Positions 56,323 through 63,204 of a stretch of 64,000 nt of DNA are shown here, in pieces. Both the position numbers and the translations under genes were made by a program. This stretch comes from Promethearchaeia archaeon (GTDB lineage Archaea; Asgardarchaeota; Lokiarchaeia; Sigyniarchaeales; SOKP01), in contig JAHQWG010000033.1 in assembly GCA_029856045.1 (NCBI GenBank), positions 32,001 through 96,000 on the forward strand. Direction: 5' to 3'. The first letter of the stretch is position 1. Each line of letters starts with the position of its first letter. The notes beneath the pieces were generated by a model that saw nothing but the letters and a program-made list of their open reading frames with translations, searched no databases and was not told the origin of the DNA.

Positions 56323-58485
56323 ATGAGTGATACAGAATTTAAAAAAAATTTATTAATTGTAATTGATATAACCGAAAAAGAAAATACTATTCTCAACGAT
56401 TTAGGAAATATTAAAGAAATAAGTGGAAACGGAAAATTAATTATAAAAAATCCGTCTGATAAAAGTCGATTGTGGAACATTACATGTGATCTAAAAGAAA
56501 CGGTAAAAACTTCATTTTCTGCACGTGAAATAAAAATAGATACTCTAGACCCGTTAAAGGATTTTTCTTCCAATTATACAATTTCTAACATAAAAGAACC
56601 TCTTTTAACAGTTACTGAAAAATTCGATACTTTATCAGATTTTTCAGATCGAGAAAATAACACGTTTTTATTTGCTCAAGATACTAAATGTCAGTTAAAA
56701 CTCCATTTAACAAATCAAATAAGTGGAGATATTATCAATATTAAACTTATTAAAGAGATTCCTCCTATACTTAAAGATATTGAGCTCGTTCCACCTAATA
56801 ATGGAACAGCTTCAATGAAAGAAGAAGAAGGTTCGAATAAAATATTTTGGGAATTAAACTCTTTAGGTGTTGGTCAATCGGCTGAATTAGTAGTAAATTG
56901 TATTGGATTAGCAAATTCCGTAGAAATGCAACCACTTGGAGAAATAAGTGCTACATATCTAGTAAACAATAGAATATTAACAATGATTGATCCAGATATA
57001 GTTGCAATAACAGATTCGATGAGTGGAGTAACAAGGGATGAAGGTAGCAAACCAGGGGTATGGGATTGTAATGTTGAATTCATTAATGAATCTGAATTTC
57101 AAGTAAAGTTAAATGATGTAAGAGTAGAACATAATATTATTACTGGGAAAGAAATTGTAGTATCCCAAGCACCCGGAAAGATTTTAAACAGAGACCAAGC
57201 ATGGGATTATGATTTCATTGTTGAATCTAAAGAAGTCCCTCAATTAGAACCAACTTTCGAATTCACTACTTTATTTACAGTGATAAAACGAGTTGAGGGA
57301 ACTATATATAAAGAACCATTATATTATCCCGTACTTCGGGCAGAAGTTTCAAAAGATATTAAACCAAATGAGGTAGGAGCTTATGCAAATACTGATATGG
57401 AAATCTTTAACACTATTTTTAATAAAGGATCAGCTCCAATCGATAAATTACTGATTACAGATGAAATAAACGAAGATTTTGAACCTCCAGACCTGAATAA
57501 AATTAAACTCTTTGCAAAAACTGGTGGGGAATTAAAAGGAATTTTCGGTAATGAATATGTTAAGGTATTTCAAATTACCCCGGATAATAAGGACTTGACA
57601 AAATCTCATAGAATAGAAATTGAACTATTTAATATGGCAAATGACTTATCATCAGATAGTACTTTAGAAATTTCTTATCCAATAATTGCTCGAAATCCAA
57701 AACCTGATAAATCGTATCAAATTCCAATTACTGTTCAGTTAAATACGAAAATTGAAGGAAAACCCTATATTATTGGCCCAAGTGAAACACCGGAAATAAG
57801 AATTAAATATATTGCTAGAAAATTTAAGACTCTTAAAAGTATTAAGCCAGGTAGTGCAGCGGGGGAGTTTATTGTAAGTATTCGACTCCAAAATCAAGGA
57901 AATGTTGAATTAGAAAATATTCTATTTAAGGATAAAATTCCAGTCAATTTTGAATTGATAAGCTTTTCTCCAATGGAATTGAAATATGAGTTAAATAAGA
58001 TTGAAAATGAATCTGAATTAGTTGTAAGAATTATAGAGTTAAAAGCTGATACTGTATTGAAGATCGAATATCAATGTTCTGGTATTGGTGAATACCCACG
58101 ACATGAACCAGTAGTTATTGTTGAAGGAAGGAAAGACGTCATTTCTCAGCCTGAAGAAAATGTAGAACCAACTGTAAGTAGAACACCCGAATCATCAATA
58201 AGTTCCTTTGCAGAAAACATATCATTCTCAATTAAATCACAAATTATTGATGAGATTATTAATCTTGAGAAAAAAATTACCCCTGGATTAAAATCAGTGG
58301 ATGTTGCCAATATGATTGAATATATGAGAGATCTTATTGCTAACATTGCGAGAGTTGGTCCCTTTATTCATGAAATTGGACAAATTGCAAAAGAGTTTAA
58401 AGATCTAGGAGAAAAAACCGTTGTTGGTGAATCTCACGATAAAATTACCAAAAAAATCAAAGAATGGAAAGCTAAATTTTCATAA
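56323..58485 (+). CDS. Cytoplasmic multi-beta-sandwich protein: mu-homology (adaptin mu/delta-COP)-like domain + Ig-like domains + C-terminal Vps28-like helical bundle
   Basis: No signal peptide or TM. IDITEKENTILNDLGNIKEISGNGKLII and IPP...G......KIFWELNSL..GQSAEL...EISATY resemble MHD strands. K.I.P...V.I...N.G..L.NI...D.IP are DUF11-like Ig repeats. The last ~80 aa are helical. The CDS is certain; the domain calls are inference. Confidence 0.6.
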   Translation: MSDTEFKKNLLIVIDITEKENTILNDLGNIKEISGNGKLIIKNPSDKSRLWNITCDLKETVKTSFSAREIKIDTLDPLKDFSSNYTISNIKEPLLTVTEKFDTLSDFSDRENNTFLFAQDTKCQLKLHLTNQISGDIINIKLIKEIPPILKDIELVPPNNGTASMKEEEGSNKIFWELNSLGVGQSAELVVNCIGLANSVEMQPLGEISATYLVNNRILTMIDPDIVAITDSMSGVTRDEGSKPGVWDCNVEFINESEFQVKLNDVRVEHNIITGKEIVVSQAPGKILNRDQAWDYDFIVESKEVPQLEPTFEFTTLFTVIKRVEGTIYKEPLYYPVLRAEVSKDIKPNEVGAYANTDMEIFNTIFNKGSAPIDKLLITDEINEDFEPPDLNKIKLFAKTGGELKGIFGNEYVKVFQITPDNKDLTKSHRIEIELFNMANDLSSDSTLEISYPIIARNPKPDKSYQIPITVQLNTKIEGKPYIIGPSETPEIRIKYIARKFKTLKSIKPGSAAGEFIVSIRLQNQGNVELENILFKDKIPVNFELISFSPMELKYELNKIENESELVVRIIELKADTVLKIEYQCSGIGEYPRHEPVVIVEGRKDVISQPEENVEPTVSRTPESSISSFAENISFSIKSQIIDEIINLEKKITPGLKSVDVANMIEYMRDLIANIARVGPFIHEIGQIAKEFKDLGEKTVVGESHDKITKKIKEWKAKFS

Positions 58486-58560
58486 AAATCTAATTTTTAT
58501 ATATATCTTTTTTTATTATTAATTGAAATGAAGTTATAGAAAGCACAGATTTATTGCTTT

Positions 58561-59694
58561 TTACTCATCATCTGCTTTTGGAATTTTGGGAAGTATCCTT
58601 CCAGAAACTTTAATTGTTTTAGGTTTAGTTTGATTATCTTTAGTTGTTCCTAAAGTGTCTTTCTTTGCACTCGATGTCTTAGATATGACCTTTTTAGCTG
58701 TTTTTTTTGTAGGTGTTTTTTTACTTATCGTTTTAGTGGATATTTTTTTAGCTGGCGTTCTAGAGGTTGTTTTTTTTACCGGAGTTCTAGTTGATGTTTT
58801 ATTATTTCTTATTGGAGTCTTTTTATCTAATGTTAATACTTCAATCCCTTTTATTATAGCACGTTCCTCATCAATATAAACCTTTATCTTATTATTTTCT
58901 AGGTCAATTATTCCACTAGGAAATTTTTTAATTCTTTCCCATTCTATATCCTCAACTTCCTCTCCAAGAACAGTAGTTATCTTAGAGACCGCTCCATATA
59001 AATAGTTCCCCATTATGATATTTTGCCGTTTATATCCAGCTGGAATTTCATTTTTTAAAATTTCATTCAAAATTCTTTTAACTTGATCTTGAGAAAAAGA
59101 TGATTTTTTAGTAGTGTATCCAGGACTTATACTTGATGGAGTTATTGGAATAGGTTTAGAAGTTACTTTTTCATTTACTTGAGGTTTAAAAACAGGAGAT
59201 ACTAGAGTAGATTCCATAGCATTCCCATTAAAACTACCTAAAGCTGGGGAATAATAATCTGTACTTTCTACTTTCTTCGAAACCGGATCTGCATCCAGAA
59301 TTATCCCTTGAATCTTACCATCTCTTTCTATATTTCTAATATATCTCATATCTGGTAATCTTTCAGTTACTTCCATCGATTCTAGACCAAACACATTCAA
59401 AAATTCGACCAATTCATCGCCTTGATCGATTGATTTTATTATACATCGATGAAATCCTGCTGATTTTATTAATTCATTTTGCAGTTCTTGGGCAACTCGT
59501 GAAGATATGAATCTCTTCCGAACTGGAGACTTAGAACCTTTCCAAATAAAAATTCTCCTTAGATCTTCCCTAACTATCACAAATACCTGATTAGGATCTA
59601 AAATTGATCCTAATTCTTCAGAAGATATATTCAGTTCATTTCTATTTCCATCATCTAATAATTCAAAAGCCATAAATTCCTTGTATTCAGTCAT
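58561..59694 (-). CDS. Gelsolin-domain protein (Asgard 1DGelX-like) with a basic K/T-rich tail
   Basis: LDPNQVFVI....RIFIWKGSKS....RF...A...IDQGDE..EFL is the gelsolin-repeat signature. A second domain starts IPAGYKRQNII.GN.LYG. The tail is low-complexity. Confidence 0.82.
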   Translation of the reverse strand: MTEYKEFMAFELLDDGNRNELNISSEELGSILDPNQVFVIVREDLRRIFIWKGSKSPVRKRFISSRVAQELQNELIKSAGFHRCIIKSIDQGDELVEFLNVFGLESMEVTERLPDMRYIRNIERDGKIQGIILDADPVSKKVESTDYYSPALGSFNGNAMESTLVSPVFKPQVNEKVTSKPIPITPSSISPGYTTKKSSFSQDQVKRILNEILKNEIPAGYKRQNIIMGNYLYGAVSKITTVLGEEVEDIEWERIKKFPSGIIDLENNKIKVYIDEERAIIKGIEVLTLDKKTPIRNNKTSTRTPVKKTTSRTPAKKISTKTISKKTPTKKTAKKVISKTSSAKKDTLGTTKDNQTKPKTIKVSGRILPKIPKADDE

Positions 59695-60043
59695 TATTCT
59701 TCTTTATACTTGTCTCAAATTAAAAGCAATTTTCTCTATAACCTTTAGATAAAAGCTCTCTTATTTGAATATTTTTATTTTTAATTTTGTCTAAATCTAC
59801 AAAAACTAATATATTCATATAATATCTATATATATTTTTATCCATCTTCATGTTTTAGATTAATACTATAGGATAATTATGATCTAATCGAAAATAATTC
59901 TATAACGACCATTAAACTCTCGTCTAGCAACCAAATTATCTTAATTTAATCAAAAATATTAATACAAATTTAACAATAATTATATAAATCTTTATTCTCA
60001 TATTGTTATTAAATTAAATTAATCAATTTCATTATTAAAAGGT

Positions 60044-60736
60044 TTGAATAAAATGGGAGTAAATTTTTGCCCAAGTTGTGGTGATCCTTTACAACCTGGT
60101 CAGAAGTTCTGTGAAAAATGCGGTGCTAAAATTGATGACTCTGCACCAGTACCTTCTCAAACTAAAAGTGCTACCAGCCCCGTTCGAAGTGGTGGAATCT
60201 TTGATATTAACAGAAACTACTATGTCTTGAAAGAGAAATACTGGGATTGGGGGTCTGGCGATATTCTTGATGAAAAGGGGCAACCCATCGGGAGAATGCA
60301 TCGAAAAATAATTTCACTTAGAAGGAAAGTTGAGCTTATGGAATTGGATGGTACTATCCAAGCAACAATTCATGCTAAGATTGTTAGTGCAAGAGGATCT
60401 CAAGATTTGAAAGATCCAGAGGGAAATATGATCGCTAGAATCAAAAAATCAATAACTAGTGTTTTTCGCCCTAAATTTTACTTAGAATCTCCTGATGGAG
60501 ATAAATGGTATGAAGCTCAAGGTAAATTCATGGGTTGGTCCTACAAAGTCACAAATTTTAAAACTGGTGAGTTAGTTGCAGAAATCGAGAAAGCTGATCG
60601 GTGGAGGGATGTTTTTTTGGGTGGTATGTTCGATTTTAAGGACACATACGCCTTACGGATTCATGATAATAAAACTGATAGGCGTATTTTAGTGGGGTTT
60701 GTTCTTTCAATTGATAATGTCTTGCATGATAAATAA
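60044..60736 (+). CDS. Zinc-ribbon + LURP-one/scramblase (Tubby-C-like) protein (likely ATG at 60053)
   Basis: FCPSCG...KFCEKCG, then YVLKEK..WG..DILDEKGQPIG, I.DPEGNMIARIKK, GELVAEIEK...DTYALRI and a terminal hydrophobic helix GFVLSID. Confidence 0.85.
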   Translation: MNKMGVNFCPSCGDPLQPGQKFCEKCGAKIDDSAPVPSQTKSATSPVRSGGIFDINRNYYVLKEKYWDWGSGDILDEKGQPIGRMHRKIISLRRKVELMELDGTIQATIHAKIVSARGSQDLKDPEGNMIARIKKSITSVFRPKFYLESPDGDKWYEAQGKFMGWSYKVTNFKTGELVAEIEKADRWRDVFLGGMFDFKDTYALRIHDNKTDRRILVGFVLSIDNVLHDK

Positions 60737-60919
60737 TATTTAATTCTTTTTTTTTCTTAACTTCTTTTTTCAAAAATAGTGATAAAAATGATATCATTTT
60801 TAGGAACCCTATTTAACTAGTACAATTTATTCAAACCTAAAGTAATTATTGAAAGATATTTTATTTTAATTAAGAAGATATTTATATAAATAAGTAGAAA
60901 TAATAATAGGTTTTTTACA

Positions 60920-61708
60920 ATGAGTATGATTCGTCTCTTAAAATTAAAGGATTACATCACTCTTTCAGGGACAATTTGTGGGATTTTTGCTTTAATGATT
61001 GGAATTATAATTAAAGATTTAGCTTTGGGATTTTTTTTAATTATGATTTGTCAAGGGACAGATCTGTTAGATGGATATGTAGCAAGAAAATTAAATCAAA
61101 AAAATGAAATTGGAAAAGAAATAGATTCATTAAATGATTTATTTTGTTTTGGAGTTGTTCCTGCAATGTTAATTTTTATTAACTATTGTGATGATTTGCC
61201 CTTTGAATTAATTTTTTACATTCCAGCGATCATTATATTCATTTTGTGTGCTCTACTTAGATTAGCAAGATTTAATATTATGGATGCAAAGGGATATACA
61301 GGGATAGTAACTCCTTTATCCGGTTTAATGGTGACCTTCTTTTATTATATAGATTATTTTAGTATTCAAACTTTTGAAGAAAATAATTTTATTTCAATTT
61401 GGGTTCAATTACTATTTCCATTTTTATTAGGATTTTTGGGTTACTTAAATATTACTACTTTTATTATATATGGTGAAGAGATAAAGAAAAAGTCTGGTAA
61501 CTTAAAATATGTCTTTATTATCGGAGGCATTCTCACAATCGTAATCGGTATAATTGGACTAACTTTTCCAAAACAGTTGGCGGCTCTACCTTTACTTATT
61601 ATATTTATAGGATCTTTTGTATTAGGATGGTTTTATATTTTTATTGGTTTTAAAAATTATTTAAATTCAAGAAAGAATATTAAAAAGGAACTTAATTCAA
61701 CTAACTAA
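60920..61708 (+). CDS. pssA: CDP-alcohol phosphatidyltransferase, PssA-type (archaetidylserine synthase-like)
   Basis: DLLDGYVAR...GKEIDSLNDLFCFGVVPA and LRLARFN...GI.TP, characteristic of type II PS synthases. Confidence 0.8.
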   Translation: MSMIRLLKLKDYITLSGTICGIFALMIGIIIKDLALGFFLIMICQGTDLLDGYVARKLNQKNEIGKEIDSLNDLFCFGVVPAMLIFINYCDDLPFELIFYIPAIIIFILCALLRLARFNIMDAKGYTGIVTPLSGLMVTFFYYIDYFSIQTFEENNFISIWVQLLFPFLLGFLGYLNITTFIIYGEEIKKKSGNLKYVFIIGGILTIVIGIIGLTFPKQLAALPLLIIFIGSFVLGWFYIFIGFKNYLNSRKNIKKELNSTN

Positions 61709-63204
61709 TTTGCCAATCTTTCAATCCAATTTTTAATTCGATTTTTCAGTACTTTTTGTACATCCTCATCAAGCTTTCCTTTATTTTTGACATCTGTTAT
61801 CCAACGGCGTATATCATTTAGTATTACAGAGAAGCCTTTATTTTCAAGAATATAGTCATTTAATTCTTCTAAATGTTTTGCAATTACATTTCCATTTTTA
61901 CTATCTAATTCTTCTGAAATTGCGATAAATCGAGAGCCAATCTCGGTCAATTCTCCCTTTAGAACTCCACTTTTAAGAATTTCATCTTTAATGGATTTCA
62001 ATGGTGCTTTTTCTTTCTTTTCTTCAATGACCTCAATAATTTTTTCCTTTTCTTCAATAAATGTAGAAATTGTATCGATTTCTTTACCAATTGGCTCTTT
62101 CTTCTCAGCAATTTCTCCAGATGGAGGAGGAATTTTTATTTCTTCAGATTTTTTTATGATTTTAATTGGCATTTGTTTTGTTTTTTCAAACAGAAATTGA
62201 AATGCCTGATTATTTTGGTGAATTGGTGAAGACATAAAGTTAAAAACGTTTGCTAATAATTCAAATATTTTTTGGCTAAGAGATTCATCAAAAATGGAGA
62301 ATTTTTCTTCTTCTTTTTCTAAGACCATATTAAAAGTTTTCTCTTGATCACTAATAGTTTGTTCATACTCGTACATTAAATCAAATAAACTCATTCGAAT
62401 CTCATTTTCAATTTTCCCAACTTGAGAAGATATTTCATTAATGTTTTGCTGTAAGATCTCTGAATTTTTTTTAAACACATCAGGTAATTTTTCATTGAAA
62501 CTTTCTTTAATTTCATTAATTTTATTATCAATAATTTTATCTACTAATAATTTTATATCTTTCTGCTTTTTTTTAAGGTTAAATTCTTCGAGATTTTCCA
62601 TAATTTCTTGTTTCGTATTCTCGATTTGTTTTACAAAATTTTGAAAATGTAAATTGAAAACGTTCTCTACCATTTTATAAAATTTACTGGTATTGTTTAA
62701 TAATAGATTTAATTCAGGGATTAATGAAACTCCATCTTCATAATCCGCTTTTATTAAACTTAAATTTGCTACAATTGTGGTTTTTGCTTCTTGAAAATTC
62801 TTAATATAATTTTTTAAATTTAATAAAAATCCAGATTCTTCTTTAATCTCATTAAAAATTTTGGATATTTTATCAGGTAATTCATTGGCCATTTGATTTG
62901 ATTTAACATCAAATTTCTCATAATAATTTAAAAATGCACGATATGGGGGTATAGCGTAATAATAAGGTGTAATTTCCTCGGAAGATTCTGAGTTAGAAAT
63001 ACACAAACCTTTAGTTAAAAGCTCTTCGATTAAACTTTTATTTAATTCTTCATTTGTAGTTTCTGTAATTGATGAGATTTCTTCCATTGTTAAGGGAGGT
63101 CTCCCAATAATTTTTAAATAAAGGTCAAGACTATCATGTGAAAGATCCAATTCATTTAATAATTGAGTTAAAAAATCTTTATCATTATTATTTGCCATAA
63201 TCAA
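61705..63204 (-). CDS. TrmB-like winged helix + long coiled-coil + C-terminal Vps28-like helical bundle protein
   Basis: N-terminal L.L......LYL.......LT.EEIS.......L..L..KGL......YYAIPP, about 240 aa of heptad helices, an E/K/P linker and an 80-aa four-helix C-terminus. Confidence 0.65.
   Translation of the reverse strand: MIMANNNDKDFLTQLLNELDLSHDSLDLYLKIIGRPPLTMEEISSITETTNEELNKSLIEELLTKGLCISNSESSEEITPYYYAIPPYRAFLNYYEKFDVKSNQMANELPDKISKIFNEIKEESGFLLNLKNYIKNFQEAKTTIVANLSLIKADYEDGVSLIPELNLLLNNTSKFYKMVENVFNLHFQNFVKQIENTKQEIMENLEEFNLKKKQKDIKLLVDKIIDNKINEIKESFNEKLPDVFKKNSEILQQNINEISSQVGKIENEIRMSLFDLMYEYEQTISDQEKTFNMVLEKEEEKFSIFDESLSQKIFELLANVFNFMSSPIHQNNQAFQFLFEKTKQMPIKIIKKSEEIKIPPPSGEIAEKKEPIGKEIDTISTFIEEKEKIIEVIEEKKEKAPLKSIKDEILKSGVLKGELTEIGSRFIAISEELDSKNGNVIAKHLEELNDYILENKGFSVILNDIRRWITDVKNKGKLDEDVQKVLKNRIKNWIERLAN

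Follow-up and report, generated by a model that had tools for sequence, protein, structure and literature searches.

A predicted Vps28-CTD-like end domain shared by two proteins around gelsolin-like, LOR and PssA-type genes in a Lokiarchaeia-type archaeon

Asgard archaea have been searched for forerunners of eukaryotic trafficking. We analysed a window of 64,000 nucleotides (G000:C32:32001-96000) from a genome assembly of 3.34 Mb in 55 contigs with about 29% G+C, and found in it five genuine genes of a Lokiarchaeia-type Asgard archaeon, each transcribed on its own; the first and the last of them (genes 1 and 5) encode proteins ending in related domains. As judged from profile comparison, these two C-terminal domains (CTDs), hereafter called end domains, are homologous and belong to one Asgard four-helix family, and in our reading of the predicted structures this is a distinct sequence family with a Vps28-CTD-like fold. 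The first protein begins with a mu-homology domain (MHD), and genes for a gelsolin-like protein, a LOR-domain protein and a PssA-type lipid synthase lie between the two. We tentatively interpret the end domain as a portable dock and the cluster as a membrane-cortex gene set, at somewhat less than even confidence.

The five open reading frames were confirmed as consecutive genes on strands +, -, +, +, -, with the coordinates given in a first-pass annotation of this DNA. Database relatives of gene 1 are labelled Promethearchaeota, the Loki-type Asgard group. The immediate outer neighbours of the block encode an Fe-S protein, a CxxCxxCC protein and a luciferase-like monooxygenase, and the eukaryote-like block is therefore sharply bounded. 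Some orthologue matches contained in-frame stops; they fall at the ends of matches, upstream of the start or within a low-complexity tail, and were read as alignment read-through and not as recoding.

The end domain of the first and last proteins

The end domain of gene 1 occupies residues 626-719 (58198..58482, + strand), as delimited by the model and hhalign, with helices at residues 635-651, 658-675, 679-694 and 703-719 (predicted local distance difference test, pLDDT, 76-91). That of gene 5 occupies residues 415-499 (61708..61962, - strand) and was likewise modelled as four helices with a Vps28-CTD-like fold, with a pLDDT of 85-91 over residues 419-498. The helices are of similar lengths in both models, and in each a bridge joins loops 1-2 and 3-4. 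When the two domains were compared with hhalign, the probability climbed steadily with the depth of the gene-5 alignment, from 53% with 6 gene-5 sequences to 91.3% (P 9.6e-7) with 25 and 97.3% (P 2.6e-11, 79 columns) with 124. The deepest comparison aligned the very segments quoted in the first-pass annotation, whose claim that the C-termini of the first and last proteins are mutually similar is thus borne out. Furthermore, of the 149 representatives that the gene-5 profile had picked up, more than 15 were also matched by the gene-1 profile in their end-domain region, and homology is assigned because of these matches together with the profile-profile match. BLASTP between the two end domains was not significant (E 0.29), and in the genome itself the HMMER profiles of the end domains gave no cross-match between the gene-1 and gene-5 types and no match to Vps28.

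The family is widespread. A profile of 25 end domains retrieved 220 clusters at E <= 1e-3 from 1.84 billion representatives searched, in proteins 56-1080 aa long, 25 of which carry 3-5 tandem copies. Pfam, applied to 34 gene-1 end domains and 56 short proteins of the family, returned neither VPS28 (0 of the 34) nor any recurrent family. From a language-model search for look-alikes, nothing usable emerged for the gene-1 end domain; for that of gene 5 there was a weak match (0.75) to a 163-aa Asgard cluster that is also a structural neighbour of the gene-1 domain, a lead at most. The delimitation of this family appears to be new. Tandem arrays of 3-5 end domains were seen in proteins of 560-1080 aa (P0132, P0136, P0138, P0139 and P0156), which is unexpected for a domain viewed as a single C-terminal dock.

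About five genes of the family are present in this genome, and we estimate the chance of two of them lying within 5.5 kb at about 3%; the pairing is restricted to this genus. One of the further members is a 188-aa coiled-coil protein with an end domain (G000:C25:128286-128852; L032:1787-2353, + strand; E 3.7e-6 and 9e-14). Its gene is flanked by those for a 294-aa fusion of a longin domain with an Arf-like GTPase and for a 192-aa small GTPase, Rab-like as read from its sequence, which amounts to a trafficking-type context for the end domain. Another match (G000:C25:66280-66597, E 7e-5) lies in a 338-aa open frame, and a weak one at C32:18973-19179 was dismissed as the tail of an ABC ATPase.

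Both ends had been called Vps28-like in the first-pass annotation, a label that holds for the fold and fails for membership of the sequence family. In a fold search of 48,161 PDB representative chains, the Vps28-CTD chain 2j9u_A ranked first, with the best root-mean-square deviation (rmsd) of 2.0 Å and 85 of 94 residues aligned, indicating a C-terminal four-helix bundle with the Vps28-CTD fold. Compared with this domain of eukaryotic Vps28, a subunit of the endosomal-sorting complex ESCRT-I, the end domain has 15% identity and no family-level sequence signal. The N-terminal Vps28 core with its steadiness box is also absent, gene 1 having an MHD and gene 5 a winged helix-turn-helix (wHTH) and a coiled coil. 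Common descent of the end domain and the Vps28-CTD is possible.

It is a distinct possibility, in our estimate, that the end domains are instead generic up-down four-helix bundles, analogous rather than homologous to the Vps28-CTD and without any tie to ESCRT. Every sequence test against Vps28 was negative. Neither protein matched Pfam VPS28 (PF03997) at E <= 1, and a scan of the genome with this model found only the canonical 212-aa Vps28 (contig C37) and a 789-aa PCI/wHTH protein (contig C36), the same two protein types that occur in 55 of 61 relatives. A hidden Markov model (HMM) of Loki Vps28 matched 0 of the 149 end-domain representatives, the end-domain profiles found no Vps28 chain and only chance-level rows among PDB sequences, and hhalign of the end-domain families against the Vps28-C of either Loki Vps28 or the 789-aa protein reached at most 42%, over 26 columns. 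On the structural side, the margin of the Vps28-CTD over generic four-helix bundles was about 1 Z unit. The gene-1 end domain was not itself searched alone against the PDB, and in the whole-model searches of gene 1 the top matches were all to the beta domains and none to the end domain; its structural neighbours in the Atlas include Hpt domains and no cluster with Pfam VPS28. Taken together, these results weigh against an ESCRT-type dock.

Against a merely generic bundle stands the first rank of the Vps28-CTD among all chains, at the rmsd and coverage given above. Moreover, hhalign was equally blind to a true Vps28-C pair: its positive control, Loki Vps28-C against the Pfam-positive 789-aa protein, reached only 6%, and the negative comparisons with Vps28 are weak evidence for that reason. 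Vps28-C-like domains on Asgard multidomain proteins are also an established pattern. Makarova et al. 2024 (PMC11188069) report Vps28-C combined with adaptin-appendage, Ig-like and HTH/PCI domains in many multidomain proteins of Asgard archaea, chiefly Lokiarchaeia and Helarchaeia, and suggest for them a role as ESCRT-0-like adaptors docking on ESCRT-II. Genes 1 and 5 fit this pattern, with a C-terminal Vps28-like bundle behind adaptin-type, Ig-like or HTH heads. Unlike the Asgard Vps28-C set, they fail Pfam VPS28 and have an end-domain sequence family of their own, and the MHD head of gene 1 is not named in that text. A complex prediction of the gene-1 end domain with Loki Vps22 (G000:C36:3068-3781) scored 0.00 and gave no answer, speaking neither for nor against binding.

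The Pfam-VPS28-positive C-terminus of the protein of about 789 aa lies at G000:C36:77934-78206 (L002). The rest of that protein consists of PCI/winged-helix repeats (Pfam E3_UFM1_ligase and PCI) and what reads, from its residues, as a beta-sandwich-like stretch. Most genomes of the family hold one such PCI/VPS28 protein, of about 790-830 aa, besides the 212-aa Vps28.

The MHD protein and the three genes beside it

Gene 1 (P0001, 720 aa; 56323..58485, + strand) encodes a cytoplasmic MHD at residues 8-332 (56344..57318, + strand), two Ig-like beta-sandwiches of the DUF11 type at residues 339-497 and 499-601 (57337..58125, + strand), a disordered linker between the second sandwich and the four helices (635-719), and the end domain. 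The AlphaFold2 model, built with 34 sequences, is all-beta with a helical end and has a mean pLDDT of 84. MHDs made up 10 of the 11 best structural matches to residues 8-332 among the PDB representatives, and Foldseek likewise assigned an MHD; the mu-homology (adaptor-type) assignment made in the first-pass annotation is thus upheld as a true MHD fold by structure search. P0001 itself did not match Pfam PF00928 (Adap_comp_sub), which was matched by 7 of 34 members of its family (best 3.7e-9). The family, of about 700 aa, is highly conserved (235 matches, E to 1e-180, identity 43-48%) and present in 59 of the 61 genomes sampled from the class, in which all five proteins were placed for the linkage survey. 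In Eme et al. 2023 (PMC10307638), Asgard homologues of adaptor-protein domains, the mu C-terminal domain included, are called sparsely distributed, whereas the gene-1 MHD family is in nearly every genome sampled here; the apparent sparseness probably reflects the limited reach of the Pfam model.

Neither a longin domain nor any other domain precedes the MHD, which starts at residue 8, and because the longin domain is absent, the identity of gene 1 as an orthologue of the mu subunit of adaptor protein (AP) complexes was ruled out. Set beside AP mu, COPI delta and muniscins (PF00928), gene 1 is without longin, F-BAR and tetrameric partners, and, unlike them, it carries the MHD at the N-terminus, fused to Ig domains and an end domain. 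A literature search found nothing pairing Asgard with 'mu homology', Greek-letter spellings being not searchable. In distant families of the class, the MHD orthologues are about 600 aa long and stop before the end domain, and end domains of the gene-1 type are found there on other proteins (297 and 475 aa; G002:C99:17380-17706 and G008:C129:14003-14332), so the domain has been shuffled between proteins.

Gene 2 (P0002, 377 aa; 58561..59694, - strand) encodes a gelsolin-like N-terminus followed by another conserved domain, at about residues 200-300, and a basic tail rich in Lys and Thr. The gelsolin-like domain, residues 19-105 (59380..59640, - strand), matched the Asgard gelsolin-like chain 7c2f_B in the PDB with an E of 1.1e-5, and the gelsolin assignment in the first-pass annotation holds; Pfam Gelsolin remained below its cut-off (15.6 vs 21 bits, E 0.015). 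The tail, about residues 290-377 (58564..58827, - strand), is polybasic and probably disordered, to go by its translation. Asgard gelsolin-like proteins were reportedly described by Akil and colleagues in 2020 (PDB 7c2f and 7whf). Gene 2 shares the N-terminal gelsolin-like domain with those proteins and, unlike them, has the second domain and the long Lys/Thr-rich tail.

Gene 3 (P0003; 60044..60736, + strand; probable start at ATG 60053, as orthologues align from residues 6-8) encodes a Zn ribbon (Zn_Ribbon_1, 4.7e-8) and a LOR/DUF567 domain of the scramblase/tubby-like kind, matched by Pfam LOR (PF04525) at residues 74-221 (4.1e-10, 40 bits vs a cut-off of 24.5). Pfam Scramblase (PF03803) missed its cut-off (19.1 vs 25.4 bits, 8.7e-4). 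Of the earlier label 'scramblase-like', membership of the LOR superfamily therefore stands and membership of the phospholipid scramblase family does not, and 'scramblase' is, from these profile matches, a superfamily-level assignment. One genus includes some genomes with a tandem duplication of the LOR gene, or with a short LOR-only paralogue (about 183-186 aa) alongside it, at or in the cluster (G011:C15:7327-8894; G013:C75:13285-13704; G025:C479:1496-1924; G060:C110:253-672).

Gene 4 (P0004, 262 aa; 60920..61708, + strand) encodes a PssA-type CDP-alcohol phosphatidyltransferase (Pfam CDP-OH_P_transf, 7.3e-16, 59.3 bits). Its best NCBIfam model was pssA, with 97.8 bits, 9 under the equivalog cut-off of 107. 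Its sole PDB matches were to the CDP-diacylglycerol--serine O-phosphatidyltransferase (PS synthase) of M. jannaschii (7pow/7b1k, 4e-18). The PssA-type assignment in the first-pass annotation agrees with the Pfam match and with these closest relatives being serine enzymes, and gene 4 is probably an archaetidylserine synthase. It belongs to the CDP-alcohol phosphatidyltransferase family together with the M. jannaschii enzyme (7pow) and is about 60 residues longer at the C-terminus; its head-group specificity is a prediction.

Conservation of the neighbourhood

In 38 of the family's 50 genomes, spread over 8 genera, a single contig carries the gelsolin, PssA and gene-5-like genes no more than 8 kb apart, and in 32 of the 50 the LOR gene lies between them; most of the other family genomes are cut by contig ends. 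The usual order is gene-5-like (+), PssA (-), LOR (+) and gelsolin (+), as in G033:C171:20765-25709, G052:C9:30332-35303 and G007:C7:102146-107185. In 3 of the 4 sister-family genomes, a distance of 1.5-2.5 kb separates gelsolin from PssA; farther out the linkage is lost, families f3-f5 and G038 being unlinked. All 4 genomes of this genus have the MHD gene beside the cluster, and no other genus does. Linkage is thus conserved across 8 genera for four of the genes and confined to this genus for the MHD gene. The bracketing of the block by two Vps28-like proteins, on which the first-pass annotation had built, is not a conserved trait; with the MHD gene a neighbour in this genus only, the two-end-domain bracket is a recent arrangement. 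The conserved lipid/actin neighbourhood appears to be new. Asgard MHD domains, multidomain Vps28-C proteins and gelsolins have already been published; Asgard gelsolins next to lipid genes in a conserved position have not previously been reported, and a literature search found nothing treating Asgard, gelsolin and scramblase together.

The four genes may also represent an inherited neighbourhood with no shared function, in which gene order changes slowly and the MHD gene arrived by chance rearrangement in one genus, an explanation that we consider rather doubtful. Downstream, the loci of other genera carry genes for a HEAT protein, DeoC aldolase, DUF711 and an FlpD-type protein, and the last three keep their synteny with the core in 6-7 of 12 loci; as these metabolic flanks are also syntenic, part, and maybe much, of the linkage is plain inheritance. 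The first-pass annotation had cautioned that the genes do not form one operon, and rightly, because the genes point in different directions and genes 4 and 5 converge, their stop codons overlapping by 4 bases. The LOR gene is inverted in this genus; genus g3, one of two g5 genomes and the g7 genome have it outside the cluster. All of these points count against a functional grouping, and the fading of linkage at class level and the adjacency of the MHD gene in a single genus also favour plain inheritance. On the other side, no part of the neighbourhood is as persistent as the core, which is kept in 12-13 of 13 loci vs 6-10 for the flanks. Rearrangement breakpoints lie directly beside the core, not within it, in several genera. 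Gelsolin and PssA stay close even in the sister family, and the functions of the genes plausibly converge at an anionic membrane.

In 10 of 12 loci of other genera (L085-L096, e.g. L086:3305-6139, - strand), two paralogues of about 440 aa are found upstream of the gene-5-like gene and divergent from it; they have no Pfam family, and one terminates in a Zn ribbon. One homologue occurs here at G000:C32:97581-98555, 2.4 kb beyond gene 5 and 1.6 kb past the window end, and two other genes are inserted between it and gene 5 in this genus. A 417-aa gene beside the gene-5 paralogue in this genome was set aside, as it is not similar to the pair of about 440 aa that stands beside the gene-5 orthologues. 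One genus has a small LOR-only paralogue of 177-198 aa at a distance of 10-12 kb from the MHD orthologue (G007:C15, G048:C58, G059:C19, G027:C79 and G047:C1), which is maybe ordinary synteny.

Gene 5 and the role of the cluster

Gene 5 (P0005, 497-499 aa; 61705..63204, - strand) encodes a TrmB-like wHTH at residues 7-84 (62953..63186, - strand; assigned from Foldseek and Atlas neighbours), a long helical coiled-coil region at residues 88-343 (62176..62943, - strand; pLDDT 55-75 in the model), a disordered linker and the end domain. Its start is likely to be ATG 63198, because a database record identical over the full length has 497 aa. Close orthologues are restricted to the genus, and the gene-5 family numbers 3-7 paralogues per genome. 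The syntenic orthologues of other genera are 643-708 aa long, with a middle domain lost in this genus. The lost domain measures about 160 aa, and a paralogue in this genome (contig C16, 737 aa) retains it.

The top Foldseek match of the wHTH was TrmBL2 (E 0.013), with MarR-type regulators also near the top, and the Foldseek search of the PDB with gene 5 listed only wHTH and coiled-coil matches. Pfam TrmB (PF01978) scored 17.3 bits vs a cut-off of 25.6; it was present in most members (83-100%) of 9 of the 10 Atlas neighbour clusters listed and in 33% of the nearest one. Like TrmB and TrmBL2, gene 5 has an N-terminal wHTH followed by a long helix. Unlike them, its helices are far longer, the domain at the effector position is gone in this genus, and a Vps28-CTD-like bundle is added.

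The TrmB-like head of gene 5 suggests DNA binding, which counts against a trafficking role, and the third alternative is that gene 5 and its paralogues are TrmB-family DNA-binding regulators outside ESCRT-like trafficking, in which the coiled coil dimerises, the end domain senses a partner or signal and the neighbouring genes are controlled. We judge this unlikely: the TrmBL2, MarR-type and Atlas matches, the middle domain of the orthologues, which sits where TrmB proteins have their effector domain, and the divergent position of the gene-5-like gene beside two conserved genes in other genera all favour it, but Pfam TrmB stays under its cut-off, the helical stretch of about 250 residues is unusually long, winged helices are also protein modules in ESCRT-II (PMC11188069), and the distribution of the end domain over the MHD protein, short coiled-coil proteins and tandem arrays fits docking better than ligand sensing.

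In the membrane-cortex interpretation that we tentatively favour, the end domain would be a portable protein-docking bundle that joins different heads to a common partner, which might be ESCRT-II-like or another hub. One head, the MHD, would bind to membrane or cargo motifs; the other would be a dimeric winged-helix/coiled-coil stalk. The synthase would make anionic archaetidylserine on the cytoplasmic leaflet, and the tubby/scramblase-fold protein and the polybasic gelsolin-like protein would work at this anionic membrane, the latter on Asgard actin. The whole would be a membrane-cortex set, not a proven endocytic machine. In its support we count the homology of the end domains, the first rank of the Vps28-CTD fold, the mobile and tandem nature of the module, the copy flanked by GTPases, the synteny of four genes, the proximity of gelsolin and PssA in the sister family, the breakpoints beside the core and the pattern described in PMC11188069. 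A more specific proposal, improbable in our estimate, is that the end domain docks one hub, ESCRT-II or a small-GTPase system, and so couples the MHD adaptor and the coiled-coil scaffold to serine-lipid synthesis and the gelsolin actin regulator. If true, it would represent a prokaryotic forerunner of the adaptor-ESCRT-actin-lipid coupling at eukaryotic budding sites.

In sum, the observation made in the first-pass annotation is confirmed and its interpretation is partly supported. In the neighbourhood kept across genera, the gene for a serine-lipid synthase is found together with those for a scramblase-fold protein and a gelsolin-like regulator, which hints at a link between anionic lipid and the control of actin. 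Even if these genes were functionally unrelated, the results on the MHD family and the end-domain family would still stand as annotation gains. The MHD family, identified with high confidence, occurs in nearly every sampled genome of the class and is fused to a Vps28-CTD-like bundle in two families. The bundle itself is a distinct, widespread and sometimes tandem Asgard family that goes unseen by Pfam VPS28, and surveys of Asgard archaea made with Pfam VPS28 therefore undercount it.

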